From IMG/VR virus record IMGVR_UViG_3300028887_000001, positions 156,088-220,087 of that record: DNA of 64,000 nucleotides; one strand, given 5' to 3'. Made by a program: the position numbers and the translations under genes. This document shows, piece by piece, positions 16,233 through 56,082 of the stretch. The stretch comes from a virus (Duplodnaviria > Heunggongvirae > Uroviricota > Caudoviricetes). The notes below the pieces were generated by a model, which did not search any database, had not been told where the DNA came from, and was given only the letters and a program-made list of their open reading frames with translations. Every line of letters starts with the position of its first letter. Within the stretch, counting starts at the first letter, position 1.

Positions 16233-16604
16233 ATGAAAAATAATGAAATTCGTTTAAGTGAACAGGAATTGTATTCTCTTATTAAAGAAAGTGTTATTGA
16301 AACATTGAATGAGGGTAAATGGTCTGATTATCTTAGTGCTGGTGCTCTTGGCCTTGGATTAGCTGGAAGTGCTGTTGGTACAATGGTTCAAGACCCAAAG
16401 TATAGTGATAACGTAGATATGCCTTCTCACGAAATCACGGTTCAACCTGGCGATGATGAAATTGAATTCGAAACAGACATTGAACCACAATACATTTCAT
16501 CAGAAGAGGATTTCTATGATAATGATGAATATGTTGGTGAAAGTAGGTTGTCAAACGCAATAGATAGAATTATAACAGAGGAAATTTCCAAGGTTCTTTC
16601 ATGA
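16233..16604 (+). CDS. hypothetical protein (123 aa) carrying the ESQL-type motif
   Basis: Contains SEQELYSLIKESVIETLNEG, similar to the motifs in 55654..56082. Confidence 0.45.
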   Translation: MKNNEIRLSEQELYSLIKESVIETLNEGKWSDYLSAGALGLGLAGSAVGTMVQDPKYSDNVDMPSHEITVQPGDDEIEFETDIEPQYISSEEDFYDNDEYVGESRLSNAIDRIITEEISKVLS

Positions 16605-16629
16605 ACCTTTCTATATATCTCCTTTCCTG

Positions 16630-16668
16630 TGGCATCATGATTATCTCTTGGTGCCATTTTTTTTTTTA
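16630..16668 (+). terminator. putative rho-independent terminator
   Basis: Imperfect tggca...tgcca hairpin followed by T11. Confidence 0.4.
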
Positions 16669-16959
16669 GTTTGAAGACTTCTTCCCTGTTACTATCAAGT
16701 TTAGTTTATGATGTGTATTTCTATCCATATTGTGAACATCGTCCCAAGAAAAAATTTGGTTTGAGGTTACTCTTTTTTCGTACTCTTTTTTCATGATTTT
16801 ACTTTTTGTTGACAAATAATCCATATACTGCACCCAGACAATATTTGGATTTAAATCTACTGTTGCGTCACATTGGTTGCGTTTTCTTGTTGTTATATAA
16901 GTTGCAAACAACAGAATTAAAATCCAGCCTACTAAAGCTAAAATATAAACTAAAATCAT
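16666..16959 (-). CDS. small membrane protein (97 aa)
   Basis: N-terminal hydrophobic helix MILVYILALVGWILILLFATYI. Confidence 0.4.
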   Translation of the reverse strand: MILVYILALVGWILILLFATYITTRKRNQCDATVDLNPNIVWVQYMDYLSTKSKIMKKEYEKRVTSNQIFSWDDVHNMDRNTHHKLNLIVTGKKSSN

Positions 16960-17044
16960 ATTATTCTTTCTTTATTAATATATAATGCATTCTTGTATTA
17001 TTTTCAACTTTGCTTATATATTAGTATAAAATTTTTAAAACAAT

Positions 17045-17461
17045 ATGGAAAATCAAGAGATTATTTACAACTACTTGCAGACGTTTCCAAAGGATACAAC
17101 TGTAGAAACACTTATTGAGAACATGGATAAGGCTAATGAAGAATTTATTGAGAGTCACAACAAACAACTAAAACTCTTGAAAGAAGAGTTTATTAATAAT
17201 GTCTATTATTACGAAGAAAATGATGATGATAGGGTTGTTTGCAAGTATATAACAAAGGTTAGGGACTTCAACGAGGCAACGTTTTCTAATTTTCTTTTTA
17301 ACTGCACAATAATCGCAATCACCAATAGCGAAATTAGAATTGATAGGGATGCAAAGATTGATTTGAGGTCTCTAAGGATGGCAAAGAAGGTCGATAATGG
17401 TGTTTATGAGAAAGCGGAAGAATGCGTCGATAAGTTATCACAATTAAAACCAGACGAATAA
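17045..17461 (+). CDS. hypothetical protein (138 aa)
   Basis: ORF followed by a terminator. Confidence 0.45.
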   Translation: MENQEIIYNYLQTFPKDTTVETLIENMDKANEEFIESHNKQLKLLKEEFINNVYYYEENDDDRVVCKYITKVRDFNEATFSNFLFNCTIIAITNSEIRIDRDAKIDLRSLRMAKKVDNGVYEKAEECVDKLSQLKPDE

Positions 17462-17467
17462 ATAAAG

Positions 17468-17497
17468 AACCCAACCTTCAAGGCTGGGTTTTTTTAG
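17468..17497 (+). terminator. rho-independent terminator
   Basis: aacccaacc...ggctgggtt hairpin plus T7. Confidence 0.55.
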
Positions 17498-17541
17498 GAA
17501 ATGATATAGAACTTGGCACAATTAGTTACTTTTTTTTTATT

Positions 17542-18147
17542 TTAATTTTTCTTTGTTTGTTCATTTAAATTGGTTTTAAACTTCAATGTTGCTTCGTATA
17601 CATCGCCGTTCTCGGTAATGAAACTAAACTTATCACCAATTTTAACTGCTTGAACCGTTCCGACACCCTTCGTGCTTTCTGTCATCAGTTTCTTTGCCAT
17701 TGCGGAGACATATTTCTTTACGTTTTCTTGCACGGCCTCGTTAATTATGGTTCTTAAGAGAGAATAATCAATAGCACCATTTGCTACTGGTTGTGGTGTC
17801 ACTGATTCGTTCACTGCATTCTCATTTCTTAGCACATCAAGGCTTTCCAATTCAAGGCTATCAAGCACTGATGTCGGCATTTCAAGTGGGGTTCCTGGGT
17901 TCTGCTTAAATGATTCTAAAACAGAACGTGGAATTTTAGAGTTTTGCATGATGCTTTCATTTACAACAACCTTACCATTACCACCCATCTTTGGTGTATA
18001 ATTAACACCCTCTTGGCTATAAGAAACTGAACCATTGTTCTTTGCGCTTTCAAGCATCTTATCCATTTGCCCATTCGAGTCCATGGCCATCAATTTTCTA
18101 ATTGTGTTCCTATTAGCCATTAAATTATTTAATGCATTTGCTGCCAT
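17542..18147 (-). CDS. hypothetical protein (201 aa)
   Basis: ORF. Confidence 0.45.
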   Translation of the reverse strand: MAANALNNLMANRNTIRKLMAMDSNGQMDKMLESAKNNGSVSYSQEGVNYTPKMGGNGKVVVNESIMQNSKIPRSVLESFKQNPGTPLEMPTSVLDSLELESLDVLRNENAVNESVTPQPVANGAIDYSLLRTIINEAVQENVKKYVSAMAKKLMTESTKGVGTVQAVKIGDKFSFITENGDVYEATLKFKTNLNEQTKKN

Positions 18148-18183
18148 TTTATTTTCTATTTTATTAAAATATAATTATCTATC

Positions 18184-19080
18184 TTACTTTTTCAATTTCG
18201 AACCACCCACATTAAGCCCTCTTTTTTCCTTCTCTTTTTGTGTTAGTTCAAGATTTCTTTTTATCATGTCCCTGAATTGTTCATCTGACATTGATTTTTC
18301 TGATTCCGGTTTGTTTTTCCACCAGTTATACATATTATTGATAAACTTGTCGTTTTCACTAGATTCGTTTCCGTTTTGATTTGTTGTATTTCCAACTATT
18401 GGCCCATTTTGCTTGGGCTCTTGTTGTATTGGTGGGTTTTCGGTGTTATCTGGCTGTGTTTGTTGTTTTTGCTGTTTAACCGGCTGTGATTGCTGTGGCT
18501 GAGAACCAACATTATCTGGCTTTTCTGGTCCGTTTGCTGGCGTTGGGTTTCCTATTGGTCCACTTTGCTTTGGCTCTTGTTGTACTGGTTGCTGATTACC
18601 CTGGTTTTGATTTTGCTGAAGTTGCTTTATATTAATGGGTTTGTTTTGTTGCAATTGTCTTGTTTTTGCCCTTAATCTTTCCAAATCAGTCAATGGCTCT
18701 TCTCCAAGTTCAACAACCTTATATATTGTTGGCAACAGCTTGTCATTCCCATTAAACGCTTGTGCTGCCCAACCCCTTGCTTTTGGTTCTAATTCAAAGT
18801 GGTTTTCTGTTGGCTCCCATGATTCTATCCTGTCAAGCCTGAACAACTTCCACTTTGGAACACCTCTTTTCGTATCTCCATAGTATTGATAAGCTCTAAT
18901 TGCTGGGTTGTTTTGTGTTGTTGCTCCATAAACATAAGGTTCAATATATCTAACACCGCCATGATTATTATTCTCACCACTATAAGTTATGAGAACACCA
19001 ACTCTGTTGTCTATCGCTTTAACAACTTCGTCTCCAGCTACGGATTCATTTATAAATCCCTCTGTTAAATATAAAACCAC
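18184..19080 (-). CDS. hypothetical protein (298 aa) with internal Q/P-rich duplicated linker
   Basis: The QQEPKQ(S/N)GPI(G/V)N segment is repeated; DNA direct repeats of about 27 bp lie near 18405 and 18565. Confidence 0.45.
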   Translation of the reverse strand: MVLYLTEGFINESVAGDEVVKAIDNRVGVLITYSGENNNHGGVRYIEPYVYGATTQNNPAIRAYQYYGDTKRGVPKWKLFRLDRIESWEPTENHFELEPKARGWAAQAFNGNDKLLPTIYKVVELGEEPLTDLERLRAKTRQLQQNKPINIKQLQQNQNQGNQQPVQQEPKQSGPIGNPTPANGPEKPDNVGSQPQQSQPVKQQKQQTQPDNTENPPIQQEPKQNGPIVGNTTNQNGNESSENDKFINNMYNWWKNKPESEKSMSDEQFRDMIKRNLELTQKEKEKRGLNVGGSKLKK

Positions 19081-19096
19081 CTTCTATATGTTTTTG

Positions 19097-19516
19097 TTAC
19101 ATAAATGGACAAGCATAAGGTATCTTGAGTGGGTCTACAGAACCATCGTATTGGCCTTCTGACCTATTCAATGACGTATCAACAACAACATCAATGCCAT
19201 ATTGCTTGTTTGGGCCATACAGTGAACGTGCTGTCATGACGTCTCTTGCAGCATAATCACAGTCATTACCGCCATCGTCAGTGTTAAATAAGCCAGACAT
19301 TTGGCTTCTAGGTTTTGTCATGTCAGGTACAATCCACCCATGACCAGCAAAATCACCTGTACCCTTACCTCTTTCGTCGCCATCTGCGAGAGCGTCTTTG
19401 TGTTGAGCGTTGTACTCGTTATTTGGGTTATAATCACTTCTACCCATTTGTTCATGACGAAGGTCAAGGGCTTCCTGTTCAAGATAGCTTTGTCCGTTTT
19501 CTTTAATTGTTGCCAT
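19097..19516 (-). CDS. hypothetical protein (139 aa)
   Basis: ORF. Confidence 0.4.
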   Translation of the reverse strand: MATIKENGQSYLEQEALDLRHEQMGRSDYNPNNEYNAQHKDALADGDERGKGTGDFAGHGWIVPDMTKPRSQMSGLFNTDDGGNDCDYAARDVMTARSLYGPNKQYGIDVVVDTSLNRSEGQYDGSVDPLKIPYACPFM

Positions 19517-19556
19517 ATTTTATGTTTTATAATTTTATTTATTATTATATAAATAG

Positions 19557-19913
19557 TTATTTTCCAAGTTCATTGTCGAATACATCGAATTCTGGCAGAT
19601 AATCAATCAGTGAACTTGTTTTTGGTACAAACCATTTGTTACAATTCCTCATTTGATGGTATTCTATACCCTGATAAGGATAGAATTCAGAATAATATTG
19701 GTTTGTCCTTGTTATATTCCTTAATATTCTTCCAGATACCTCAAGAGGTGTAATCGTTGAACCCTGGTTATAGAATATGTCATCATGTTCTCGATTTTCA
19801 TAATCAATACCGAGTTCTCTTAGAGTGTTGTGAACAAAACTGTTTACTTCCTGTTTTATGCCACCAACAATCTCACTCTTTAGGCTTCTGCTATTCACCT
19901 TTCTTGGTAACAT
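19557..19913 (-). CDS. hypothetical protein (118 aa)
   Basis: ORF. Confidence 0.4.
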   Translation of the reverse strand: MLPRKVNSRSLKSEIVGGIKQEVNSFVHNTLRELGIDYENREHDDIFYNQGSTITPLEVSGRILRNITRTNQYYSEFYPYQGIEYHQMRNCNKWFVPKTSSLIDYLPEFDVFDNELGK

Positions 19914-19914
19914 T

Positions 19915-20418
19915 TTATATCATCTTTTTTATCTTATTGACAAATTCCTTGTCTTCTACTGTAATTTCACGCTTCCCAAGCTTTATTACTTTTTGTGGCT
20001 CTTGCGGGTGTGTGTCCTTTTTCTCTAATTTTGGAACTTCTGGGACAACCCCAACTTTCTTTACTGAGTTTCTTAAGCTCTCCAATTTATTATGCGCAAA
20101 ATCCCTCATAAGGTCACCGCCAATCATATCATATTCTGCATTATTGTTTTGCTGCATATTTCTAATATCAAAATCAATCCTTTTAAGGTCTGAGAATGAT
20201 ATTGTATATTTCTCATTATGCTGCCTATCCTTTTTATCAGTTGGGTTATTGTATTCTTTATCCAACAATGCATGAAGGCGTTTGTAACCTTTTGTTTTCT
20301 TATACTGGTCACCAGAATATAGTTTCAACCTCTCCTTGAGGCAATCAACGAGATATTGTGGTAATATTATCTGATTATCACTAAATCTGGTGTTTTCGTC
20401 TTCTAATATCAGTGCCAT
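19915..20418 (-). CDS. hypothetical protein (167 aa)
   Basis: ORF. Confidence 0.4.
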   Translation of the reverse strand: MALILEDENTRFSDNQIILPQYLVDCLKERLKLYSGDQYKKTKGYKRLHALLDKEYNNPTDKKDRQHNEKYTISFSDLKRIDFDIRNMQQNNNAEYDMIGGDLMRDFAHNKLESLRNSVKKVGVVPEVPKLEKKDTHPQEPQKVIKLGKREITVEDKEFVNKIKKMI

Positions 20419-20421
20419 ATT

Positions 20422-20661
20422 CTATCCTCTTCTAAATACAACTGGTCCCGTCCAATTATTCTGATTGCATAGTGTACCGGCGTCCTCATCAGTAGAAACC
20501 TCTTTTCCGTATTTCTTGTTTCCGTCAGGGTCTGTTATTGTTGCGCTATTGCCAACCTCTGAGCCTTTGTATTCCTTTACATTTCCACCGTTCAATTGGA
20601 CTTCTCCTTCAACGAGCCTCTGGAAAATGTCAAGTTGACTTTCGTTTATTATTATTTTCAT
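20422..20661 (-). CDS. small protein (79 aa) of the ESQL-motif family
   Basis: N-terminus MKIIINESQLDIFQRLVEGEV. Confidence 0.4.
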   Translation of the reverse strand: MKIIINESQLDIFQRLVEGEVQLNGGNVKEYKGSEVGNSATITDPDGNKKYGKEVSTDEDAGTLCNQNNWTGPVVFRRG

Positions 20662-20703
20662 TGTAGTAGACTAATATATAATAAATATTAAAAAAACATA
20701 TTA

Positions 20704-20738
20704 CTAAAAGAAAAAGAGGCGTTTAAACCTCTTTTTTA
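20704..20738 (-). terminator. rho-independent terminator overlapping the dNMP kinase stop codon
   Basis: aagagg/cctctt hairpin with flanking A/T runs on both strands. Confidence 0.5.
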
Positions 20739-25238: not shown

Positions 25239-25577
25239 TTAATTGTTTAAAGAACTTCCAGCCTTAGATATTTTATTGATTATCCATTTATCTATGGCAT
25301 CTTCAAGAAATTCATCTCTTTCATCTTTCGGTAATATATCTCTGAATTTTTGCTGAACATCATAAAACACCCCTTGTTTATCAAGTGACCTTTTTGGTGT
25401 GCCGTTCTCTATTTTTACATAACACTCAGTTTGATTTGCATCGTTAAGATTACCCTTCTTGAAATTATCATCAAGGTATTTTTTGACCAATAACCTTTTC
25501 TCATTATAGTCAAACTCTTCTTTGAGTATGTTATTGAGAATGATTTGTTCTTGATTTTCTGTTATAGTTACTTTCAC
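25239..25577 (-). CDS. hypothetical protein (112 aa) of the ESQL-motif family
   Basis: N-terminus [18 protein letters not shown]. Confidence 0.4.
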
Positions 25578-25617
25578 TGTTATTCTACTTTTATGTATAA
25601 ATAGTCCGTTTTTAACT

Positions 25618-25902: not shown

Positions 25903-28410
25903 TTAACATTTCTCCACTTTTGCAACCACTTCATTGTTCTCATCAACGGTAACACTATATGAACTTTTATGCTTATTGCTCGATAATACAAGGTCAACAA
26001 CTTTATCTGATATATTGTCTTGTATAATCCTCATTATTGGCCTTGCACCATACTCTTTTTGCTCTAACGCTTGCTTATAAACATATTCTACAATCTTGTC
26101 ATCGTATTTGAGTTCTATATTATTTTCCTTTACCCTGTTACACAGCTTATTTAATTCGATACCGACAATTGTATGTATATTGTCGTCTGTTAATGCGTTA
26201 AAATGGACAATCTTGTCAATTCTATTAAGGAACTCTGGATTGAACTTTGATTTAAGGCTCTTTTCAATTATGGCTCTCTTGTTTTCATCCTCATTCCTAA
26301 TAAATCCGATTCCGCCTCCAAGTTCGGTTGCTTTCTTCGCACCAACATTTGATGTCATAATAACAATTACATTCTTGAAGTTAACTGTCGTTCCGTTATT
26401 GTCTGTTAATCTGCCCTCATCAAACAGTTGGAGAAATAGGTTATAAATACTTTCGTCTGCCTTCTCAATTTCATCAAACAACAGCACACAATACGGCTTA
26501 TTCTTAATGGCTTCTGTTAGCAAACCACCATTGTCATAACCAACATATCCAGCACTCGCACCAATTAGTTTATTGATTGCAGATTTATCCTGATATTCAC
26601 TCATGTCAAAACGAACAAGACAATCTTCACTTCCAAATATGTTTTCTGCCAGCTTCTTTGAAATTAATGTCTTTCCTATGCCACTTTGTCCAAGAAACAA
26701 CAATGTTGCCATAACCTTTGACTTATCACCGAATCCAGCCCTGGCTCTTTTTATCGCCTTTGATATTTCTTCTATCGCTTCATCCTGACCAATCACATCC
26801 TTCTTCAATATATCAGATATGTGCAGTATCGTTTCCTTTTCGTTGGCCTTTAATTTTGATACTGGTATGTTGCTTATTGTGGAAACCGTTACGGCAATAT
26901 CGTCTTCAGTTGCTTTTAACCAAGTCGAATCATCTTTATTTATATCTCTCTTTATATCACTTAATTCCTTATTTATTGCGCTTTCTTTTTTTGATATTTC
27001 ATCAAGTTTCTCAAAATCGCCACAATTCATTGCGGTAATCTTCTCTTCATCCATCTTAGAAAGCTTCTCTTTGAGTTTCTTAATGCTTTTTTCTTGCCTG
27101 TTATTTAATGATATGCTTGCACCAGTAAGGTCTATAACATCAATTGCAGAATCTGGTAAATTATTGTTTGTTATGTACCTTTTTGCAAGGGTTATTGTCT
27201 TATAAAGAACATCGTCATTGAATTTAACGTGATGGAAATTCTCATAATATGATTTATTGTGCTTTAAGATTTCAAATGTTTCTTCCTTTGTTGATGGTTC
27301 GACAATTATCTTCTGTAGTTTTGTTGAGAGTGCTGAATTATTCTCAATTCCGTTTCTGTAATCCTTGAACGATATGGTTCCAACAACTCTTACATCACCC
27401 TCAGAAAGGATTTTACCGATAACATCTGTCAGGTCTCCATCTTTATCCTTTCCAGTGTTTCTTACAACATTTTGCATGTCATCTATAAAGAGGATATAAT
27501 TTGGATTATTCTTTAATTCCCTGAATAAACCATCAACACGCTCTTCAAACATACCCCTTAAGTGTGTGCCACTAATGAGAGCCATAACATCAAGCATAAT
27601 AACCTGTTTTCCAGTTAATATCTCAGGAACATTTCCATTGTCAATCATTTCAGCAAGCTTATAACCAATACTTGTCTTACCAACACCAGGTTTACCAACC
27701 AATATTACATTGTTCTTCTTTCTCCTTGATAAAACCTTTATAATGTTGTTTAAGATATCATCCCTTCCAATAAGTTTGTCATAATGGCCATTGATTATCT
27801 CATCGTGAAGATTAATTGTATACTTATTGATGTTTGGAGTTGCACCATTTCTTACTGGTGTTGTAGCATGAATTTCTGACTTTAATGGTATTTTTGTATC
27901 ATTATGGTTATTATTGATATAACGTCTTCTGTTTTGCTCGTTGGAACTTTCTTCCTCAATCTCACCAACCTTTTCTTCAACGTAATCATATTGCAGACCA
28001 GACTTTAATAGTTCCCTTGCACAATTAAATTCATAATCCCTGTTAATCAACGCCAACAAGACATGTTCGGTTCCAACAATACTTACATCCCTTGCTGATG
28101 CTTCCTTACCGGAACAAACCATTAACTGCGTCAACTCTTTGTTAAACCTTTTCTCCTGGTTATCAAGCAATGGCTTCCTCTTATATGACTTTATCTCATC
28201 ATAATAATACTGACGAAGATATTCCATATTCTCAGACATCAAAACATTATCCATTATAATATTAGCATGGCATGTTGCATTGTCAAGAATAGACAATATT
28301 AGATATTCCGCAGTATATTCGTTTGTCGGAAACTCATTATTTAATACCTCATCAATATAATTTAAAACATCAATAAGTTCTTGTGAATTCTTTATTTCCA
28401 TTTCTCCCAA
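25903..28410 (-). CDS. ClpA/ClpB/ClpC-family Hsp100 AAA+ chaperone (two ATPase domains, Clp N-domain, coiled-coil middle region)
   Basis: D1 Walker A LVGKPGVGKTS, D2 Walker A FLGQSGIGKTL, sensor GYVGYDNGG, ClpB-like LIGRDDIL signature, coiled-coil insert between D1 and D2. Confidence 0.8.
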   Translation of the reverse strand: MGEMEIKNSQELIDVLNYIDEVLNNEFPTNEYTAEYLILSILDNATCHANIIMDNVLMSENMEYLRQYYYDEIKSYKRKPLLDNQEKRFNKELTQLMVCSGKEASARDVSIVGTEHVLLALINRDYEFNCARELLKSGLQYDYVEEKVGEIEEESSNEQNRRRYINNNHNDTKIPLKSEIHATTPVRNGATPNINKYTINLHDEIINGHYDKLIGRDDILNNIIKVLSRRKKNNVILVGKPGVGKTSIGYKLAEMIDNGNVPEILTGKQVIMLDVMALISGTHLRGMFEERVDGLFRELKNNPNYILFIDDMQNVVRNTGKDKDGDLTDVIGKILSEGDVRVVGTISFKDYRNGIENNSALSTKLQKIIVEPSTKEETFEILKHNKSYYENFHHVKFNDDVLYKTITLAKRYITNNNLPDSAIDVIDLTGASISLNNRQEKSIKKLKEKLSKMDEEKITAMNCGDFEKLDEISKKESAINKELSDIKRDINKDDSTWLKATEDDIAVTVSTISNIPVSKLKANEKETILHISDILKKDVIGQDEAIEEISKAIKRARAGFGDKSKVMATLLFLGQSGIGKTLISKKLAENIFGSEDCLVRFDMSEYQDKSAINKLIGASAGYVGYDNGGLLTEAIKNKPYCVLLFDEIEKADESIYNLFLQLFDEGRLTDNNGTTVNFKNVIVIMTSNVGAKKATELGGGIGFIRNEDENKRAIIEKSLKSKFNPEFLNRIDKIVHFNALTDDNIHTIVGIELNKLCNRVKENNIELKYDDKIVEYVYKQALEQKEYGARPIMRIIQDNISDKVVDLVLSSNKHKSSYSVTVDENNEVVAKVEKC

Positions 28411-29512: not shown

Positions 29513-29513
29513 A

Positions 29514-33668: not shown

Positions 33669-34154
33669 TTATCCATTTTCATATAAAGAAACACCTGAAC
33701 CTTTAAATAAAATCTTTTGGCCTACTTCATGAGGGAAGGAAACTGACCCACCAACACTATGGCCATTTTCATTGTACGTAGTCGTCCAGGTTTCTCCATC
33801 ATCAATTGAGTAAGCTAACCATGCATGTGTTGAAGTTGACACATTAGGTGCAAATAAAATTCTTAATGAGTCCTTAGGGCCACCTCCTAAGTATTCGAAG
33901 GTCAAGTACATTTTCTCGTACTCATCATTATCTCCGCCACCACCATTATTTTTTTTCTCACCTTTCTTGTAGAACAACGGTGATTGAGATAAAGCACCAG
34001 TTTCTTGGCCAGTTTCACTAAAGAATGAGCCAATTTCTGTTAAGTTTTGTTCAATGTGGTTTGCTGGTGCAAACTTAACCTTCTTTATCTCAGCAGTTGT
34101 TACAAAATGCTCAGGCATTTTATAACCATACGAATCGTAATAATTGTCTAACAT
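33669..34154 (-). CDS. N-terminal domain of the split BspA-like LRR protein (paralog of the fused gene at 1..688)
   Basis: MLDNYYDSYGYKMPEHF... is paralogous to the window-start gene. It ends ...SLYENG* and the same frame continues SCYFTSDGHYNVYGNIMSLLYADDF. Confidence 0.55.
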   Translation of the reverse strand: MLDNYYDSYGYKMPEHFVTTAEIKKVKFAPANHIEQNLTEIGSFFSETGQETGALSQSPLFYKKGEKKNNGGGGDNDEYEKMYLTFEYLGGGPKDSLRILFAPNVSTSTHAWLAYSIDDGETWTTTYNENGHSVGGSVSFPHEVGQKILFKGSGVSLYENG

Positions 34155-35313: not shown

Positions 35314-37056
35314 TTACCAACTGTTGCCACAATAAGCATTAACCAAGCAGAGAATGTTATTATCTATTGCGTCGGGTATTTTCTCTTCCAGCGCATCAAT
35401 ACAAAGTTTTAATGTGGCGCCAGTGTTTATATCCTCGTCGAAAATAAGAAGTTTAGCATTCTTATATTGTGACATCAATTGACCATTCTTTAGATAATTG
35501 TCTGCAACAATATAGACATTATTAAGGAATGGTCTAAATTTTTTAGAAAATTGTGTGACCTTTACTCTCTTTGAATTGAAATGGAGTTTATATCCCCTTT
35601 CTTTCAACATATCTGAGTATTGCTTTACTATTTGTAATGTTTTTACAAGATATTGATTAAATACTTTTCTTCCTATTTTAAGTTGTATTCTTGATTGGAT
35701 TTCATTTAAAATGTGTGTCGAATCATAACTCTTTGTGTACAACCTGTTTTGTTTTTGCATGAAATTTTTGACTAGGTGTTTATCAACAATATCACCATCT
35801 GATTGCATTTCTTTTACAACTGTACCATAAGCATATTCCATTAAGCAATTAAACACATCGTTTATTGGCGTTTTTTCCCTACTATGACTTGAAAGTGATA
35901 TATTTGAAAATAATTCAATGTTATTGTTCATTAATTCCCTCATTGGCTCAGAAACAAAATATGAGATTTCTTTATATGCAACATTTTTAACCTGGTTTTC
36001 AAAATCCATAACATCTTTCTGTGAAAAACCCTTTTCAAGCATTGATTTAACATCCCTACCATCATCAAACCTTACATTTATAAGATTTCTTGAAAAGAAG
36101 TCTTTCTTAAATGGTATACCAAGTTTATTACTTAGATTTGTACAGTAATAAGTGTTAAATTCAGAAGAACTGGGAGGGGCAATAATAAAGTCCGGAACAA
36201 ATCCTTCCTTCTTTAATGCATACGCGGCATAATTCACAGATTTATCTAGGAATTGCGAAACAGACGAATATCCATTGTCACCATTCAGCCCGAATTGTTG
36301 TTTATAATGCCCATCCTTAACACCATTCAATGAAAAATTCTGAGCGATGTTTGGTGTGTATTTATTGTCGTAGGTTACATTTATTGGTGCAAATTCTGTT
36401 TTCTTATTTCCTTTTTCTCTCTCATCCTTAGATATACCAAGAAGTTTATCTGTTAAATCATTTTGTCTCATTGTGCCATGTTTTATGGCATCACTGAAAT
36501 TAAAATCATCCATTGTGAAAAGGGCAATATACTTAATGTTTGTTCCATTAACAGTTCCTGTCATATATCGAGCAACCCTATCTGAATCTGTATTTTGTAT
36601 TCTATTAACCGTTGAAGCGTATGGATTCACTTCTTGTTCAATTCTATCTATTGCCTTCTTCGCGGCATCAATGATATAATTGTCAGACTTTCCGGAATCA
36701 AACCATTTATTAACCGCTGTTATTGTTGCACTTTCAAGGTTATCTGGCATTTCAATACTACCATTTCGGCCATTTTTAACAAACGCAATAACATTATTAT
36801 AGTATTGTATTGCAGCCTGTTTTGATTTTGCGGTTTTTGAAATACTTGATGTTTTGCCATGTGCAGTATTATCACCATAAAGAACATCATTTTTGTTACC
36901 AAAAAGTCTGGTATCAACAGAGCCCTTTCCGCGATTTTCCTTATCTGTTGTGTTGTTGTTAACTGATATGTTTATTGTACCATCTTGGTTTTTTGTCCAA
37001 TCAACACCCTCAAATAATTTGTTGTATTGTGATTCTGTTATGATAATGTTCCTCAT
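35314..37056 (-). CDS. large protein with C-terminal type-I phosphoribosyltransferase (PRTase/PRPP-binding) domain; ESQL-motif N-terminus
   Basis: LLIFDEDINTGATLKLCIDAL is the PRPP-binding loop signature. The probable start MRNIIITESQYNKLFEGV is at 37056; the ORF-track extension reads through the terminator. Confidence 0.5.
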   Translation of the reverse strand: MRNIIITESQYNKLFEGVDWTKNQDGTINISVNNNTTDKENRGKGSVDTRLFGNKNDVLYGDNTAHGKTSSISKTAKSKQAAIQYYNNVIAFVKNGRNGSIEMPDNLESATITAVNKWFDSGKSDNYIIDAAKKAIDRIEQEVNPYASTVNRIQNTDSDRVARYMTGTVNGTNIKYIALFTMDDFNFSDAIKHGTMRQNDLTDKLLGISKDEREKGNKKTEFAPINVTYDNKYTPNIAQNFSLNGVKDGHYKQQFGLNGDNGYSSVSQFLDKSVNYAAYALKKEGFVPDFIIAPPSSSEFNTYYCTNLSNKLGIPFKKDFFSRNLINVRFDDGRDVKSMLEKGFSQKDVMDFENQVKNVAYKEISYFVSEPMRELMNNNIELFSNISLSSHSREKTPINDVFNCLMEYAYGTVVKEMQSDGDIVDKHLVKNFMQKQNRLYTKSYDSTHILNEIQSRIQLKIGRKVFNQYLVKTLQIVKQYSDMLKERGYKLHFNSKRVKVTQFSKKFRPFLNNVYIVADNYLKNGQLMSQYKNAKLLIFDEDINTGATLKLCIDALEEKIPDAIDNNILCLVNAYCGNSW

Positions 37057-37083
37057 ATTGCTTATGTTATAACATATAAATAT

Positions 37084-45907: not shown

Positions 45908-46774
45908 TTAATAAAATCTTGCGTTAATTTCACTAATCATTGATTTCGAGCCCAATAATGAAGATAGTCTTTCAAACCAATGATTGCTAATATAATACTT
46001 GTTCTCAAGACATTCACATAACATTCCAATATTTTTTACTTCTCGCAAATTTCCACATTTTTCCATTTGTATTTTTTTGTTAAATCTTGGCTCTAAATAC
46101 CACTTTAAGCAGATTGGATTAAAATCTATGTAATCAATATCACCACGAATAACCTTTGTCCACAAATCATAAAAGAAACCAGATTTCTTATTTGGACAAC
46201 TTGCAATTGTTATGTTTTTGCCAAATTTTAATATTTCTTTGACAATTTGTATTATTTCAAGTCCTCCCGTTTTATCACCCATGTCAAGAAATGCAGCATT
46301 GTCAATATAAATGTCATCACAATTAAAACCAATAGAAGATAAGGCATCAATATTTGAGAATACTATGTTTGTCTCCTTGTTACCATGAAAAATGTTTGTC
46401 TCTTTACTTTTAACATTATTAAATCCTATTATTTCATGACAATGATTTAATATATTCATTAACGTATTTTTGGCATTAGACGCTGCACTTATCGAGTTTG
46501 TAATAAACAACACACGATTAAAATTTTTTGTGCCATGTGTTATATCATATGCAATCTTAACCAGCATCAGTGTCGTTGTTCCCGCTTGTCTATACGATTT
46601 AATTACATTAAACTTATTATCCTTCAGGTTATTTAGCAAATCTATTTGTTGTTTACTTAAGGACGTAAAACACCCGCCATTTCCAACAACCAACGAATTG
46701 GCTACATCTTCACACCACTTGATATAATCAACACACAATTCATTCTTTCCTATTTCTACTAACATATCAAGCAA
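45908..46774 (-). CDS. P-loop-like ATPase candidate (deviant Walker A YRQAGTTT; Walker B DDIYIDNAAF), terminase-ATPase-like
   Basis: Motif resemblance only; at 288 aa it is too short for a full large terminase. Confidence 0.3.
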   Translation of the reverse strand: MLDMLVEIGKNELCVDYIKWCEDVANSLVVGNGGCFTSLSKQQIDLLNNLKDNKFNVIKSYRQAGTTTLMLVKIAYDITHGTKNFNRVLFITNSISAASNAKNTLMNILNHCHEIIGFNNVKSKETNIFHGNKETNIVFSNIDALSSIGFNCDDIYIDNAAFLDMGDKTGGLEIIQIVKEILKFGKNITIASCPNKKSGFFYDLWTKVIRGDIDYIDFNPICLKWYLEPRFNKKIQMEKCGNLREVKNIGMLCECLENKYYISNHWFERLSSLLGSKSMISEINARFY

Positions 46775-49421: not shown

Positions 49422-50006
49422 TTATTTGTTACTTATTGCAACTTTTCCCTTCGGCCTCGTCAAAGACGGGTCCTTTTTTTTCTTCTTGCGGCCAACGCCA
49501 ATACCCCTTCTTTGTATTCCAAACACCGGAACATCATAAGTGTAATTACCAGTGCTGTCAGTGGTTGTGGAACCTCCTGGTGCCGTAACATCACCGACAC
49601 AAGCTCCACCACCCATAACACCGCCGCAATCACATTCCTTTATAATTCTTTCACCATCATCGAAGAATGTTTTATAAAGTTTATCTACTTTTTCATCAAA
49701 ATTTTCACCAAAGAACTTATACGAGCGTGTATGCATACTTTGCTTCTTGCCATCGCCGCCAATTGGTTCAGTTATATTATCCTTTCTTGATATAAGGCCA
49801 AGGTCAACCATCTTTCCAAGCAATTCCTTTTCTGGTATGTCATTCTTTTGGAAAAAATCATTATATTTTGGCTTACAGGGGTTCTTTTTCAACTCCTCAA
49901 GATAAGTTCTTAAATTATCTTCGAAATCTTTGTAGAGAATTTCCTTATTTTCAAATTCTCTAATGATTTGCAATTGACTCTCTGTTATATATATGTTCTT
50001 TTTCAT
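49422..50006 (-). CDS. hypothetical protein (194 aa) of the ESQL-motif family
   Basis: N-terminus MKKNIYITESQLQIIREF. Confidence 0.45.
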   Translation of the reverse strand: MKKNIYITESQLQIIREFENKEILYKDFEDNLRTYLEELKKNPCKPKYNDFFQKNDIPEKELLGKMVDLGLISRKDNITEPIGGDGKKQSMHTRSYKFFGENFDEKVDKLYKTFFDDGERIIKECDCGGVMGGGACVGDVTAPGGSTTTDSTGNYTYDVPVFGIQRRGIGVGRKKKKKDPSLTRPKGKVAISNK

Positions 50007-50010: not shown

Positions 50011-50226
50011 TTAAAAAGTTGTTGATGCAGATTTCCAGAAACTATTCCTTTGCCAAAGAATTTTGAAGATTTCGTTCACAACGTCCGCTGCAAGTTCCTT
50101 AACCTTCTTTTTAAATTCCCTGGAGTTCATATTATCTCCAATTTTGGAGGCAATCATGGAAGAAATTTCAGATTTTGTGAGTTCCTCCGTGATAATTTCT
50201 CGTAAATCACTCTCTTTTATTATCAT
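50011..50226 (-). CDS. hypothetical small protein (71 aa), ESQL-like N-terminus
   Basis: MIIKESDLREIITEEL. Confidence 0.35.
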   Translation of the reverse strand: MIIKESDLREIITEELTKSEISSMIASKIGDNMNSREFKKKVKELAADVVNEIFKILWQRNSFWKSASTTF

Positions 50227-50747: not shown

Positions 50748-50764
50748 TTTTGTTTTATAGTGAT

Positions 50765-51151: not shown

Positions 51152-51199
51152 AAAAATCTAATTTATTTCATTATAATAATATATAATAAATATTACAAA

Positions 51200-51228
51200 T
51201 AACAAAAATGACCACAAAATGTGGCCAT
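51200..51228 (-). terminator. rho-independent terminator after the sigma factor gene
   Basis: tgaccaca/tgtggcca hairpin plus a T-run on the minus strand. Confidence 0.45.
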
Positions 51229-51259
51229 CATATATAAATTTAATAAACAAAAATGAAAA

Positions 51260-52021
51260 TCATTTAAACAGAAAATCCGCCTCTGAAATTGAGAAGACTT
51301 CTTCTCTCATGGTGTTTATTGCTTTGATTTTTATTTGCCTAACCCTTTCAGTACTAAGTTTTAGGTCAGAACTTATTTCTTCAAGACTGTGACCATCACC
51401 TCCATCATCAATCCCGAAATACTTCATAACAACAACCCTTTCCCTTTCACTCAGACTGGCCAATAATTTTTTTACAACAAAATTCTTTTGCTCATTCTCT
51501 TCCTTTATTTCACAAGAGTTTATCCTATCATCGGCAATGTCATTGCTTTCATAATAAAAATCACTATCATCATCGGTAACTGATACATTTTCAATTGTCT
51601 GGTTTTCTGCCGGAAATTCATCATCAAAATTCACCTCATTCTTTTCTTCATTCATCTTTTCGTCAATAGCAGCCATCATCCTTTGTCTTATCCACCAGGC
51701 TGCATATGTGTAAAATTTAACGTCCTGAGATAAATCAAACTTTTCAATGGCCCTAATAATTCCGGTATTACCTTCAGAAATCAAATCACCAATATCAACA
51801 CCACTTCCACGAAACTTCTTTGCTGTGTCAAAAACAAACCTTAAATTGGCTGTTATTATTTTGTTTCTGGCATCAATATCACCATCCTTTGCTTTAACAA
51901 GCAATTCCCTCTCAACATCTTTAGGTATTGGTGAGTACCTTTTCAATTCCTGATAATATGTTTTTACACTTTCGGTAAAATCATTGTTTCCAACACTTCT
52001 GTTTATGTCATTGTTAATCAT
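51260..52021 (-). CDS. sigma-70 family RNA polymerase sigma factor (regions 2 and 4)
   Basis: LRFVFDTAKKF, LISEGNTGIIRAIEKFD, KFYTYAAWWIRQRM (region 2), and C-terminal EISSDLKLSTERVRQIKIKAINTMR (region 4 HTH). Confidence 0.8.
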   Translation of the reverse strand: MINNDINRSVGNNDFTESVKTYYQELKRYSPIPKDVERELLVKAKDGDIDARNKIITANLRFVFDTAKKFRGSGVDIGDLISEGNTGIIRAIEKFDLSQDVKFYTYAAWWIRQRMMAAIDEKMNEEKNEVNFDDEFPAENQTIENVSVTDDDSDFYYESNDIADDRINSCEIKEENEQKNFVVKKLLASLSERERVVVMKYFGIDDGGDGHSLEEISSDLKLSTERVRQIKIKAINTMREEVFSISEADFLFK

Positions 52022-54471
52022 TTTTTAGTTGTTTTTGTACTCTTCTTATTAACTCTCTTTTTAGGCTGTTTTTCTATTACTTTTTCAACCTTTTTGCTTG
52101 TGTTTCTAATTTGTTGCAAACTTGAAACACCGTTTGTCTTTGTCACGGTAACAATATGTTCGTGCCAATCCCTAACATCTTCTATATGTGTTATGTTGAA
52201 AATGAAATCATAATCTTCCAATATCCTTTCATACAAAAGTCTCATGTTGTCATAATTGACATTTGCAACCCTTCCAAGAATCTCATCAAAAACAAGGAAA
52301 TTCATTCTTGATATTGTTGAAACTCTCGATAGTGCACTTCTAAGAGCCAAAGCAGAAGCCGTTCTTTCAAAACCACTACCAGAATCAAGTGTCTGAACAA
52401 GACCATTCCTAATCAAATTAAAGGTAACCTCATTCTTGGTGTTAATATCGACATTTACTGAGAAGTCACAAACATCATCAAGCAATTGTGATATTATCTC
52501 ATTAACAACTGGTAACATTTCCCTTAAAATCATCTTCGTTACACCATCCTTACCAACCATTTCAAGGTAAATCTTCCAATTCCTATTCAGGTTTTCGTCC
52601 TTATCGTAATCTTTCAATATCTTTTCCCTCTTTTCCTTCTCTTCTGTGTAAGTTTTAACATTAGCCTTATTGGTACTCAAAGAAATGAGATTTTTGTCTC
52701 TTATTTCGCGTTTTGTTTTCAGATTACCCTTAATAAGGTTAATTTCTATATCCAATTTGTTATTCTGGTCAATTGCTTCAGAATTCTCGTTGTATTTCTT
52801 CTTTTTATTGGTTAAATTCTCATAATTCTTTAATAAAAGTTCTATTTTGGAAGATAATGCTGATTGTGATGCATTTAAATTGTTCAATGTATCATAATTC
52901 TCCTTATTCTTCTTCATTGACTCAATCTTTTCTTTAAGTTTCTTAATCTTATCGGCAACACCCTTTCCCTTATTTGCCAATTCTTCCAACTCGATTTCCT
53001 TCTCTTTTATTTTCTTTGAATTGTCAACATCTTTCAGTTTTGCACCGCAAGTTGGGCAGAATTCACCCTTCTTTAATGCGTCAATAGTTGACCTTACCAG
53101 TTTATAATCAGCGCCAATATTCGCACGTTCTGTTTCTAGCTCGTTCTTTTCCTTCTCTGCTGCGTCATATTCCTCCTTTGAGAAATCAACTTCACCAATT
53201 TCGTCAATCTTCCTCTTATTTTCGTTAAATTCGGCCCTCTTTTTCTTTCCCTCTTCTTTTGTGTCTGTTATATTTTTTTCTAATGTAGTTATATCCAGAG
53301 ACATTATATCTTTATCAATTGTCTTCTTGCTTTCTGTTAATTTTGTCTGATTATCTTCCAGTTCCTTTATTTCTACGTCAAGCTTCTTGTTAGACTTTTC
53401 CAAATCAGAGTTTTCCTTCTCCTTGATTTTTAATTCTTCATTAAATGCAGCAATTTCGTCGTTTAAATCCTCCCTATTATATTTGTATATCGTAAGATTC
53501 TGTTTCAATTCTTTAAACCTGTCATTGGCAACTTTAAATTTCTCCTCCAATGGTAACAAACCAATCCACCTTGATAGAAGGACACCCCTATTCGTTGGTG
53601 TATCATCTATAAGTGCATCAAGATTCTTTCCGGTGATACACATCATAAGGTCAAAATCCTTCTCATTGCCAATTGCCTCACGAATAATCTTGTTGGTTTC
53701 TCTAACGTCTTGCCCATTTTCCTCAACATATTCGGAAAGTTCTTCAAGCGTATCACCAATCTTCCTATAAAACTCAGCCTTCTGTGTTGTTCTGCTCTTT
53801 GACGTTCTTTTTTCGAGTGCTGGCCTTGTCAGTGTCCTTTTTATGATATAATCACACCCATCAATGCTAATACAAGCCTCTGCACATAACTGCGTTTCTT
53901 CTGGAAGCGTGTTATTGAACAAATCCTCTAATCTTGAATACTTTCCTGATTTACCAAACAAAATAAAATGAAGAAGGTCTACAGCAAATGTTGTTTTTCC
54001 GCTTTGATTTGCTGGGTCACCATTCAAAAGAACCAAACCACGAAGGGTTGTAAAATCAAAACTGTTGTCACCACCATAGGATTCGAAATTAGACCACTTA
54101 ACCCACTTTATCGAGAACTTTCTATACTTATCAAAAACCTCATAATCAATCTTTGAATTGATTTCGTTATCAATGGACTCTATAATATCCATGTCATATT
54201 CACCCTTATGATATTGTTCAAGATATTTTTTAAACAATTCTTTGTGATTTTCCGGATTCTGTATTTCTGCAACAGTTTTTCTTGAAAAAACACAGTCTTC
54301 ATCATTATCGTCTGGTGTTATGAATTTATATATCACATCAACATCATCCTTTGATTTTCCATACTTCTTTGCCACAAGTGATTTTATCTCATTCACCTTC
54401 TCTTGTGTGTAATCATATGGTAAAACATTCCACTGTACCTTGATTTTTGCTTTTTCTCCAACTTTTATCAT
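52018..54471 (-). CDS. sbcC: SbcC/Rad50-family SMC-like ATPase
   Basis: N-terminal Walker A GDPANQSGKTT, long coiled coil, zinc hook CPTCG, and C-terminal signature/Walker B LVFDEILG. Confidence 0.8.
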   Translation of the reverse strand: MIKVGEKAKIKVQWNVLPYDYTQEKVNEIKSLVAKKYGKSKDDVDVIYKFITPDDNDEDCVFSRKTVAEIQNPENHKELFKKYLEQYHKGEYDMDIIESIDNEINSKIDYEVFDKYRKFSIKWVKWSNFESYGGDNSFDFTTLRGLVLLNGDPANQSGKTTFAVDLLHFILFGKSGKYSRLEDLFNNTLPEETQLCAEACISIDGCDYIIKRTLTRPALEKRTSKSRTTQKAEFYRKIGDTLEELSEYVEENGQDVRETNKIIREAIGNEKDFDLMMCITGKNLDALIDDTPTNRGVLLSRWIGLLPLEEKFKVANDRFKELKQNLTIYKYNREDLNDEIAAFNEELKIKEKENSDLEKSNKKLDVEIKELEDNQTKLTESKKTIDKDIMSLDITTLEKNITDTKEEGKKKRAEFNENKRKIDEIGEVDFSKEEYDAAEKEKNELETERANIGADYKLVRSTIDALKKGEFCPTCGAKLKDVDNSKKIKEKEIELEELANKGKGVADKIKKLKEKIESMKKNKENYDTLNNLNASQSALSSKIELLLKNYENLTNKKKKYNENSEAIDQNNKLDIEINLIKGNLKTKREIRDKNLISLSTNKANVKTYTEEKEKREKILKDYDKDENLNRNWKIYLEMVGKDGVTKMILREMLPVVNEIISQLLDDVCDFSVNVDINTKNEVTFNLIRNGLVQTLDSGSGFERTASALALRSALSRVSTISRMNFLVFDEILGRVANVNYDNMRLLYERILEDYDFIFNITHIEDVRDWHEHIVTVTKTNGVSSLQQIRNTSKKVEKVIEKQPKKRVNKKSTKTTKK

Positions 54472-54477
54472 AATTTT

Positions 54478-54750
54478 TTAGTCTGTATTTTTAACTGTTA
54501 TTTTTCTTTTCTTTCTCACAATCTTTGGTTCTTCCGTTTTCGTATCTCCACTTACTTCGGCGTCAGTTTCTTTCGGTTTTATTTCACCATTCTGGCGCTT
54601 TACGTTATCACCAGGAGATAACCCGTATCTTTCAATATTGAATCCGGTTAATAAACATTTGTATTTGAATTCATCAACATCAGATATTTCATTAAGAGAA
54701 CAATAATCCTCTATTGCTTCATTTAATTCTTTTTCCTTCGTTAATTTCAT
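54478..54750 (-). CDS. hypothetical small protein (90 aa)
   Basis: ORF with a promoter motif 19 nt upstream. Confidence 0.4.
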   Translation of the reverse strand: MKLTKEKELNEAIEDYCSLNEISDVDEFKYKCLLTGFNIERYGLSPGDNVKRQNGEIKPKETDAEVSGDTKTEEPKIVRKKRKITVKNTD

Positions 54751-54766
54751 ATCTAATTCTAAAAAT

Positions 54767-54790
54767 CATTGCAAAAATACTAAAATTATC
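54767..54790 (-). promoter_or_regulatory. conserved promoter motif
   Basis: Forward cattgcaaaaatactaaaattatc. Confidence 0.55.
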
Positions 54791-54863
54791 CGATATAATA
54801 AACAAAATATTGAATTATTTTAATTTTTTTATATATATTATTATAAATCTTAACAAAAGTATA

Positions 54864-55619
54864 ATGACACAAGAAGGACAAAATGTATGGATGGCACTAG
54901 ATGTTAGTACAGCATGCATAGGAATCACAATATTGGTTGATGATGGTAGTGAATATGGCAAAATAGCAGAAATGACACACATATCACCAAAAATACCATC
55001 AAAAATTAAGGGAATTGAAGCATTATTCTTAAAAAAACAACAATTCCAACAATTCATTAGGGGGTTCTCAAAATACCCAATAGACAAGGTTGTTATTGAA
55101 GAACCACTATTGTCATCAAATAACCAAAATACAGTGGCAACACTCCTTAGATTCAATGGAATGATAAGTGATTGTATCTATAATGAACTTAAAATTGTCC
55201 CAATCTACATTTCAAGCTACGAAGCAAGGGAATATTCATTCCCGGAACTAATGGCCATCAGGAAGTACGGGAAAGATGAAAACATATATAAAGCATCAAA
55301 GATTGTCTCCAATATAAAAAACAACAATTATACATTATTTGGTAGTTACCCATGGACTATTGACAAGAAAAGCCTCTTACACGAAAAAGTCAGCAATCTA
55401 TTCCCAGAAATACAGTGGGTTTATGATAAAAACGGAGAACTTAAAAAAGAAAACTTTGACGCGACAGACTCATATGTTGCGTGTCTTGGACAAATAAACA
55501 AAGAAAGACATGGAGAACTTGAGTTTAAATCAGATAATATTCAAGTCGAAGATAATAAGGTTGAATATGATGTCCTTTATTGGGATAGAAAAGAACATAG
55601 AATAACATACTTATCATAA
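54864..55619 (+). CDS. RuvC-like Holliday junction resolvase
   Basis: WMALDVSTACIGITIL (Asp), VVIEEPLL (Glu) and C-terminal DATDSYVACLGQI (Asp/Asp) align with RuvC catalytic positions. Start moved to the ATG at 54864. Confidence 0.55.
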   Translation: MTQEGQNVWMALDVSTACIGITILVDDGSEYGKIAEMTHISPKIPSKIKGIEALFLKKQQFQQFIRGFSKYPIDKVVIEEPLLSSNNQNTVATLLRFNGMISDCIYNELKIVPIYISSYEAREYSFPELMAIRKYGKDENIYKASKIVSNIKNNNYTLFGSYPWTIDKKSLLHEKVSNLFPEIQWVYDKNGELKKENFDATDSYVACLGQINKERHGELEFKSDNIQVEDNKVEYDVLYWDRKEHRITYLS

Positions 55620-55620
55620 A

Positions 55621-55655
55621 AAAATGAGGTTATTTTTTAACCTCATTTTTTTTTT
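55621..55655. terminator. bidirectional rho-independent terminator
   Basis: tgaggtta/taacctca hairpin plus T10. Confidence 0.6.
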
Positions 55656-56082
55656 ATATATTATATTGGATATTCATCTCATTAGATTCATTTAGGACAT
55701 GTTTCATTGATTCAACGATAACATCATGTAAATATGATTCACTCATCTTATCTCTCCAACCAATTCCGCTTATATACGACCTCTTACCGCTGTCAATATT
55801 ATCACTATTCTTCAGCATCCTAGCTTTACGGTTATTGTTGCCAGAAATGTATTCGTTATCCCAAGCGTATTTGAAATTATCATATTGTTCGCGGGCTTTC
55901 AATGTTCTTGGGTCATTCGGTCCGAATTTATCATAATAGACTTTATATTTTTTATACGCCTTATTTTGCGCACTCCACAATGTATCTGTTGATATTTCGT
56001 TTAGTGCTTTTTTCAAACTTTCTTTTATTACTTTTCGTAAATATGATTGTCCAATTTTTCTTTCCATTTTATTAATTTGCAA
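55654..56082 (-). CDS. hypothetical protein (142 aa) with two SYLxxVIxES(L/M)KxxLNE repeats
   Basis: SYLRKVIKESLKKALNE and SYLHDVIVESMKHVLNE. Confidence 0.45.
   Translation of the reverse strand: MQINKMERKIGQSYLRKVIKESLKKALNEISTDTLWSAQNKAYKKYKVYYDKFGPNDPRTLKAREQYDNFKYAWDNEYISGNNNRKARMLKNSDNIDSGKRSYISGIGWRDKMSESYLHDVIVESMKHVLNESNEMNIQYNI

Follow-up and report, generated by a model that had tools for sequence, protein, structure and literature searches.

In bacteriophage T4, propeptides of 10-19 N-terminal residues direct proteins to the core and are cut off by gp21 (PMC9026906), and such targeting propeptides are common to otherwise diverse internal proteins (PMC9026906; PMC3012670). Alt, a packaged ADP-ribosyltransferase, is processed at both of its ends (PMC9026906). 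The Jug phages, jumbo phages of the gut that have 360-402 kb genomes and Bacteroides or Phocaeicola as predicted hosts, have been described as T4-like and as having a prohead protease (PMC12880540). Here we describe a short N-terminal peptide, referred to as the tag, that recurs on unrelated proteins within a stretch of 64 kb from a virus of the Caudoviricetes (IMG/VR record IMGVR_UViG_3300028887_000001, positions 156,088 to 220,087). This whole stretch, with ~34% G+C and dense coding, is called the window below. That the tag is a short, flexible, appended N-terminal address module is well supported; that it would be a T4-type propeptide for capsid targeting, one whose sequence is new, is argued by analogy, and we give it nearly, though not quite, an even chance.

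Seven open reading frames (ORFs) of the window, here designated A to G, had been grouped in the initial annotation as sharing an ESQL-type N-terminus. All seven exist and their translations agree with those given earlier, whereas the starts of B (a GTG), C and G had to be corrected. The tag segments are listed below, with scores against a hidden Markov model (HMM) of the motif where these were obtained; lengths are in amino acids (aa).

20605..20661, minus strand: tag of A (gene 20422-20661, 79 aa), MKIIINESQLDIFQRLVEG, HMM score 20-23 bits.
25518..25577, minus strand: tag of B (gene 25239-25577, 112 aa, GTG start), HMM score 13 bits.
37006..37056, minus strand: tag of C (gene 35314-37056, 580 aa), MRNIIITESQYNKLFEG.
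49953..50006, minus strand: tag of D (gene 49422-50006, 194 aa), MKKNIYITESQLQIIREF, HMM score 18-20 bits.
50179..50226, minus strand: tag of E (gene 50011-50226, 71 aa), MIIKESDLREIITEEL, HMM score 13-18 bits.
16233..16316, plus strand: composite tag of F (gene 16233-16604, 123 aa), MKNNEIRLSEQELYSLIKESVIETLNEG.
16548..16601, plus strand: C-terminal tag-like helix of F, LSNAIDRIITEEISKVLS, which contains I-T-E and is kept in seven of eight homologues.
55996..56067, minus strand: N-terminal half-motif of G (gene 55654-56067, 137 aa), MERKIGQSYLRKVIKESLKKALNE.
55687..55743, minus strand: C-terminal second copy in G, SESYLHDVIVESMKHVLNE.

Protein C starts at the ATG at 37056 and has 580 rather than 590 aa, the length also found for its orthologues and for P0001; G starts at the ATG at 56067, as called in L141, and the 112-aa gene of B is called identically in L004. 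Gene E lies directly upstream of D in one operon, and protein D ends in a basic, Lys-rich C-terminus. The tags begin at Met1 in A to F. Proteins A to E start with two to four hydrophobic residues followed by [TNK]-E-[SN]-[QD]-[LYE] and an amphipathic stretch, which can be summarized as h-h-I-[TNK]-E-[SN]-[QD]-h (h, hydrophobic) plus an amphipathic helix; MKIIITESQLKKLI is one of the tag peptides. The claim of a shared ESQL N-terminus holds for these five and has to be loosened for the other two. F carries a variant, IRLSEQEL followed by LIKESVIETLNEG, that does not score with the ESQL HMM, and G is without the ESQL part and has two copies of a half-motif, 'VIKESL..LNE' (general form hIKESh..LNE). 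Composite tags of related phages, of the form h-R-L-T-E-S-D-L-x-x-h-V-K-R-V-I-K-E-S, hold both halves in one and so link the ESQL core to the hIKES half, and F and G can therefore be grouped with A to E, if less tightly.

A regular expression for the motif, composed post hoc after the data were seen, matched six times in the 86 window proteins, five of these within the first 15 residues. Shuffled proteins gave 0.40 matches in total and 0.03 at the N-terminus, and 273 off-frame ORFs gave none. When all six frames of the window were scored with the motif HMM, A to E received 13-23 bits and everything else at most 3 bits, a separation that is partly circular because the model was trained partly on A to E themselves. 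Fragments lying outside the motif were seen in the neighbouring pair of genes at 18184-19080 and 17542-18147 (both minus strand), where one protein starts with the tag-like MVLYLTEGFINESV and the other has an internal KVVVNESIM; they may be degenerate tags or protease-type sites.

The carriers had been described as otherwise dissimilar and not as sharing a homologous domain, and this description stands. The bodies of A to G show no pairwise similarity (all E > 0.1) and are thus not one domain family, searches of Pfam and PHROG with these seven and two neighbouring ORFs returned nothing significant, and elsewhere the tag is found before independent Pfam domains. The naming of C as a PRTase-domain protein holds less well, as only its C-terminal part is weakly PRTase-like, with weak matches in sequence and fold searches of the PDB. 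Among 120 orthologues of C, h-x-I-T-E-x-Q-Y is kept and the length of the helix before 'EGVDW' varies; one subgroup of orthologues is without the ITESQ core. In the family of F (eight homologues) the tag is the most conserved segment. An AlphaFold model of C, built with 30 orthologues, has a mean pLDDT of 82, with residues 1-10 and 12-14 below 50 and unpacked on the body. In carriers that have an L5-gp82 domain the domain starts at residue 16, and homologues from isolated phages of Mycobacterium and Bacillus align only from residue 12-21 on, leaving the tag uncovered; the tag has therefore been added before pre-existing domains.

Selection acts on the peptide itself. Tag codons differ among A to E, and in 80 ESQL tags codon usage tracks the background and Ser alternates between TCN and AGY, which points to constraint on the peptide rather than on the DNA; a DNA repeat or mobile 5′ cassette was rejected for the same reason. 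A Sec, Tat or lipoprotein signal peptide was likewise rejected, as the hydrophobic run before the Glu is only 3-4 residues long and the tag is near-absent from cellular genomes. The string I-T-E-S-Q-L combines a hydrophobic staple (I and L) with a capping box (T and Q), and by textbook rules it sets the point at which a helix begins, behind a short stretch that is strand-like.

The phylogenetic distribution of the tag was explored by scanning IMG/VR with a degenerate DNA pattern for M-K-x(2-4)-I-T-E-S-Q-L, which occurs at no fewer than 120 loci (at least). Among the matches listed, 91 of 128 have the exact in-frame spacing 'MKxxITESQ[LF]', and the carriers are highly diverse and range from 53 to 518 aa. 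Five loci (L081, L047, L098, L122 and L014) were discarded as out-of-frame chance matches in ordinary marine T4-like phages. The motif HMM recognized 195 tags in 984 kb of these loci, 94% of them at a start methionine, and tandem arrays contain up to ten tags per locus. The contigs that carry tags have 26-45% G+C and reach 322 kb among the loci listed. Pfam domains behind the tag in 75 non-redundant carriers include Phage_lysozyme (3), PG_binding_1 (3), LysM (2), Peptidase_M23 (2), Hydrolase_2, Phage_lysozyme2 and GH19 (one each), Phage_L5_gp82 (3) and GP88 (1), and individual carriers show a weak DHH match or zinc ribbons; about 10 of the 75 tagged families are cell-wall hydrolases or binders. 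A stricter pattern matched at least 80 times in IMG/VR, and bacterial and archaeal genomes, 596 Gb in all, gave 10 matches, several of which are internal methionines or truncated ORFs. The tag is largely confined to viruses and is near-absent from bacteria and archaea. A full-text search of the literature for the motif strings found nothing relevant, and the paper on the Jug phages (PMC12880540) makes no mention of the tag. The principle is known from T4; the sequence of the tag, its sister tags, the scale of their use, and their occurrence in Jug-type and freshwater T4-like phages appear to be undescribed in the literature searched.

Sister tags occur on the same contigs as the ESQL tag. One of them, MNLQEsIRRILREE, was found in IMG/VR at 65 loci outside the window (L007 and L147-L210), and composite tags such as MKKIIRLTESDLxRIVKRVIKES are found there as well. 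In a second set of loci, comprising 885 genes, MNLQE-type tags are present on 13% and ESQL-type tags on 10% of the genes, with both types at 26 of 64 loci. The Pfam matches of MNLQE-tagged proteins include DUF2237 and, in two proteins, the ART-PolyVal ADP-ribosyltransferase domain. This tag is conserved at the nucleotide level (ATG AAC CTA CAA GAA nnC ATA AGA AGA ATA TTA AGG GAA GAA) and employs otherwise rare codons, namely AAC (86%), CTA (76%), TCC, ATA (98%) and AGG (88%), which suggests an RNA or DNA function, or a very recent spread.

If the tag is a T4-kind propeptide, its amphipathic helix would attach the carrier to the scaffolding core during prohead assembly, a gp21-type protease would cut after [LIV]-x-E inside or at the end of the tag (ITE/S, IKE/S, LNE/G; the slash marks the cut), and the freed cargo would remain inside the head and pass into the host together with the DNA. 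Core docking, cleavage, packaging and ejection of the carriers are steps that we infer from several lines of comparison. The [LI]-x-E consensus, taken as the mere presence of the motif, is found as ITE, INE or IKE in all of A to E and as LNE or IKE in F and G, and tags often show h-x-E once more where the helix ends, with a small residue after it. The corresponding T4 sequences are MKTYQEFIAE/A (IPII, IPIII), ...STITE/A (IPI) and ...FLTE/A (gp23), with the cuts placed at the T4 cleavage positions according to the literature.

The carrier phages are T4-like. Local tblastn searches with T4 proteins identified gp18 sheath homologues at 27 loci among those listed, about 20 of which have in-frame tags, and tag loci also include gp19 tube homologues, a gp20 portal homologue (L125) and a gp23 capsid homologue (L072). 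Several other loci that match gp21 or gp23 were chance out-of-frame matches in marine T4-like phages and were not counted. Extension of L072 yielded L143, which is on one contig with the tag-bearing locus L066 and has a head module in T4 order, consisting of a portal, a 239-aa core-like protein, a protease with 38% identity to T4 gp21 (E = 3e-22), a scaffold that is acidic and 490 aa long, and a Gp23-family capsid protein of 622 aa. The family of this capsid protein comprises at least 8000 clusters in the protein database, with PF07068 in 120 of the 120 listed and contigs of up to 323 kb.

Sites of the form [LIVM]-x-E-[SAGTN] are crowded into the L143 scaffold (14) and core-like protein (9), and most of these are h-[KTN]-E-S (VKES, ITES, IKES), which is the core of the tags. 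Elsewhere in the module they are restricted to the first 60 residues of the capsid protein and the last 48 of the portal, and occur once in the protease, near its N-terminus. One segment of the scaffold, 'ELVKESLNE/A', comes near the half-motif that F and G carry ('LVKESLNE' in comparison with G). All common variants in a set of 120 capsid homologues keep LINE/A where T4 has its cut, and [LIVM]-x-E is enriched in the first 62 residues (5.0 versus 1.8 expected) and slightly depleted beyond them (4.4 versus 5.7 expected). A gp21 protease with a scaffold core is thus found in the tag-bearing relative L143 and is reported for the Jug phages (PMC12880540). T4-like carriers, the cleavage consensus within the tag and the site-rich scaffold and core proteins together provide circumstantial support for capsid targeting, and cargo-like carriers such as cell-wall hydrolases and ADP-ribosyltransferases count in the same direction. 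The earlier proposal of a shared targeting or docking peptide, for example a capsid-targeting signal as in T4, can accordingly be divided: the appended tag stands, and it is for the capsid-targeting part that the evidence is circumstantial.

A number of observations weigh against capsid targeting. Packaging or cleavage of the carriers was not observed, and neither a virion proteome nor a cultured carrier was found. Flavobacterium phage immuto, the closest cultured relative by its major capsid protein, has in 100 kb only one internal IITESQF and one start resembling the sister tag, and no tags are present in 50 kb of sequence from the huge phage LR756508. The tag has no similarity to MKTYQEFIAE of T4, with which it has in common, by eye, only 'MK' and an ending in h-x-E. 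Conservation of the residues after Glu7, S-Q-[LFY]-x-x-h-h, equals that of the residues before it, a pattern that a simple ITE/S cut would not explain. In some regions a tag is present on 10-23% of genes, which would be a lot of cargo; some carriers look metabolic, such as a DUF2237 protein and, by reading of its sequence, a pterin dehydratase-like protein; and tagged lysozymes with cell-wall-binding domains look like ordinary endolysins. Local tblastn with T4 head and tail proteins detected no head module in the window, so that the evidence on protease and scaffold comes from relatives and the literature.

Avoidance of cleavage sites gave a mixed outcome. The premise, which is a corollary of our own and not a published criterion, was that tagged proteins that meet the prohead protease should avoid [LIVM]-x-E in their mature parts. 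In the first set of loci the observed/expected ratio was 0.89 for 131 tagged versus 1.15 for 495 untagged proteins, a tagged/untagged ratio of 0.76 (bootstrap 95% confidence interval 0.68-0.86), and the controls, which were the reversed pattern and eight others, gave 0.94-1.08. Further points against capsid targeting come from the second, independently ascertained set, in which proteins with the ESQL-type tag gave 0.97 versus 1.14 (ratio ~0.85) with an Asp control at 0.87, and proteins with the sister tag showed no depletion. Neither was there any depletion in the seven tagged proteins of the window (observed/expected 1.61 on 20 sites). The site-avoidance signal was positive once and was not replicated, and it is inconclusive.

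The alternative that survives best, which we regard as unlikely without being negligible, is that the tag is a docking peptide for some other phage-encoded partner, such as a chaperone or unfoldase (a ClpB/ClpC-like AAA+ protein), a system of timed degradation, or a compartment or assembly platform; a chaperone or protease recognition tag was also among the earlier proposals. A flexible, amphipathic, largely virus-confined tag under selection at the peptide level would fit any phage-encoded receptor, and a candidate partner is encoded in the window:

25903-28410, minus strand: ClpB/ClpC-like double AAA+ ATPase, 835 aa, with a weak Clp_N match.

A homologue of this ATPase with 36% identity is present in the tag-bearing contig L054; this is the only one of 120 sampled loci in which such a homologue was seen, in a sampling too thin to count either way. 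The high share of tagged genes, along with endolysin-like and metabolic-looking carriers, would be better explained by regulation or sequestration of potentially harmful proteins than by packaging. Against such a partner, the tag resembles no known degron or adaptor motif, and the T4-type cleavage consensus in the tag and the site-crowded scaffold and core proteins would be left unexplained.

Somewhat less likely still is that the tag has no partner at all, and is a self-contained N-terminal module that aids expression, folding or the early phase of translation in hosts not relying on Shine-Dalgarno sequences, or that self-associates through a strand plus helix in the manner of half a ribbon-helix-helix. 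The strand-then-helix arrangement resembles the first half of a ribbon-helix-helix, with F giving a weak RelB-like Pfam match (E = 0.012), and the tag starts with A-rich codons (MK, Ile-rich). The nucleotide conservation and rare codons of the MNLQE tag point to an RNA or DNA function of that tag, yet the codons of the ESQL tags, with their background usage and switching Ser codons, indicate constraint on the peptide. Conservation reaches residue 14, past any known effect on early elongation, the same phages have no tag on their genes for core replication and structure, and the tag is hardly ever used in bacterial and archaeal genomes, which include the probable host groups among the Bacteroidota. 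Short leaders would also fit an effect on expression, as promoter-like motifs are located only 10-40 nt upstream of many tagged genes. The sites in the window, and a sigma factor gene, are the following.

16204..16211, plus strand: promoter-like TATTTATA, 22 nt upstream of F.
20680-20687, minus strand: equivalent promoter-like site for A.
25596-25603, minus strand: equivalent site for B.
37075-37082, minus strand: equivalent site for C.
51185-51192, minus strand: equivalent site for the operon ending in E and D.
56278-56285, minus strand: equivalent site for the operon ending in G.
51260-52021, in the window: phage sigma factor, which perhaps reads the TATTTAT[AT] promoter.

The pattern TATTTAT[AT] occurs 37 times in the window versus 23 expected, mostly in intergenic positions 20-40 nt upstream of start codons, and in relatives (G/A)ATATTTAT(A) is found 10-40 nt upstream of roughly half the tagged genes, and also upstream of their tail-sheath genes. 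TATTTAT[AT], or (G/A)ATATTTAT, is probably a lineage-wide phage promoter. Its presence before both kinds of genes suggests a promoter class common to tagged and tail-sheath genes, possibly a late one, in genomes where the motif is frequent.

An origin of the likeness in chance among AT-rich N-termini, or in ordinary paralogy within a single domain family, is effectively excluded. Lys- and Ile-rich N-termini are common in AT-rich genomes, and in related phages some of the tandem arrays consist of true paralogues whose similarity goes beyond the tag, but the excess of N-terminal matches over shuffled proteins, the unrelated bodies of A to G, the different Pfam domains behind the tag, and the in-frame spacing and start-methionine position of the matches in IMG/VR all argue against it.

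With regard to the origin of the window, protein C has 304 homologues, many on contigs of 300-400 kb, and an identical copy of F is present on contigs of 233 and 349 kb. C is only ~58% identical to Jug-type proteins, which places the window in a relative of the Jug phages. A DNA search with window positions 20000-44000 found no close relatives among isolated phages, and the DNA polymerases of the carriers are at most 25% identical to, and thus not closely similar to, those of any isolate. A short-peptide tblastn of the tags against isolated phages also returned nothing, by a method too insensitive for such queries. Besides the Clp-type ATPase and the sigma factor, the window encodes a UvrD-like helicase, an SbcC-like protein and a large terminase fragment. 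The latter is an ORF of 288 aa (45908-46774, minus strand) that matches large terminase profiles in part only, which fits the split or intron-interrupted genes reported for the Jug phages (PMC12880540).

Near the 3′ end of the window is a gene for a 1285-aa protein (58455-62312), which was tried as a tail sheath and rejected, having no similarity to the sheath of a tag-bearing contig. Beside it, L141 contains ORFs of 309, 642, 1054, 1220 and at least 3499 aa; these ORFs, a giant protein among them, probably form a module for the tail or baseplate, and none matches Pfam. No head genes were found in the ~10 kb past the 3′ end of the window that L141 covers. Elsewhere, a 482-aa gene (1540-2988, plus strand) adjoins a 497-aa gene (2985-4478, plus strand), and the near-identical starts of their products, MIPKIIHYCWISGEENMPEDIKAC... 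and MIPKIIHYCWISSEENMPEDIKSC..., mark an apparent tandem duplication, glycosyltransferase-like by eye. The genes at 1-687 and 33669-34154 (both minus strand) have similar N-terminal regions, MLDQYYDSYGYKPSEAFITTAELRDIKFSP... and MLDNYYDSYGYKMPEHFVTTAEIKKVKFAP..., and from these appear to be dispersed paralogues with no relation to the ESQL tag. A HicA-toxin-like gene of 80 aa (56339-56581, plus strand) is located between the operon of G and a gene that is DnaG_N-like by Pfam.

Taken at its widest, the capsid-targeting reading would mean that a large, uncultured group of T4-like phages, including the abundant Jug-type phages of the human gut, marks a sizeable part of its accessory proteome with interchangeable N-terminal tags (MKxIITESQL, RLTESDL..VKRVIKES, MNLQEsIRRILREE) that define the proteins loaded into the head and injected. 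We hold this wider claim tentatively, at somewhat less than an even chance. If it is true, sequence by itself could reveal which effectors are injected by phages that have never been grown, with cell-wall hydrolases, ADP-ribosyltransferases and candidate anti-defence proteins among them. A packaging address would provide a one-line sequence rule that lists the proteins injected by uncultured jumbo phages of Bacteroidota, and with it a catalogue of candidates for host takeover and anti-defence in phages that are among the most abundant in the human gut and in lakes. The T4 principle would be extended from a few internal proteins of T-even phages to dozens of cargo proteins per genome, and engineers would gain a short peptide with which to load such phages with foreign proteins. 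The tags may instead serve a sorting or quality-control system that the phage encodes and that has no relation to the capsid. Should the capsid idea prove wrong, purifying selection on a virus-frequent peptide that is attached to unrelated proteins implies a phage-encoded recognition system still to be found, whichever the mechanism.

Among known systems, Sec, Tat and lipoprotein signals resemble the tag in being N-terminal, in their Met-Lys start and in their presence on cell-wall hydrolases among others, but the tag has 3-4 hydrophobic residues followed at once by Glu, and is without a signal-peptidase or lipobox site. The cargo-loading peptides of encapsulins are a parallel of another kind, in that a short terminal peptide sends unrelated cargo enzymes inside a shell of the HK97 fold. 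Their usual place is the C-terminus, their consensus is another one, a protease takes no part, and the system is cellular rather than viral. The propeptides of phiKZ/SPN3US-type phages vary in length and sequence and have a small-x-E cleavage motif, in contrast to the one conserved peptide seen here. Many head and ejection proteins of jumbo phages are reported to be processed after Glu by a T4-related prohead protease (PMC5694885, PMC7411985, PMC10052503). The closest comparison is with capsid targeting in T4. In both cases an amphipathic segment of ~10-20 residues is located at the extreme N-terminus and is common to unrelated proteins of one phage, [LI]-x-E is followed by a small residue (ITE/A in T4 IPI, ITE/S in the tag), and the phages are T4-like, with homologues of gp20, gp21, gp23 and gp18. 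The tag differs in that its conservation continues past the first Glu, that at least three related tag types exist, and that its carriers are far more numerous (up to 10-23% of genes locally) and include endolysin-like and metabolic-looking proteins. The processing of T4 Alt at both ends has a counterpart in the tag copies at both ends of F and G, and the tagged genes, which form tandem arrays of small variable genes, resemble the variable repertoire of T-even internal proteins (PMC3012670).

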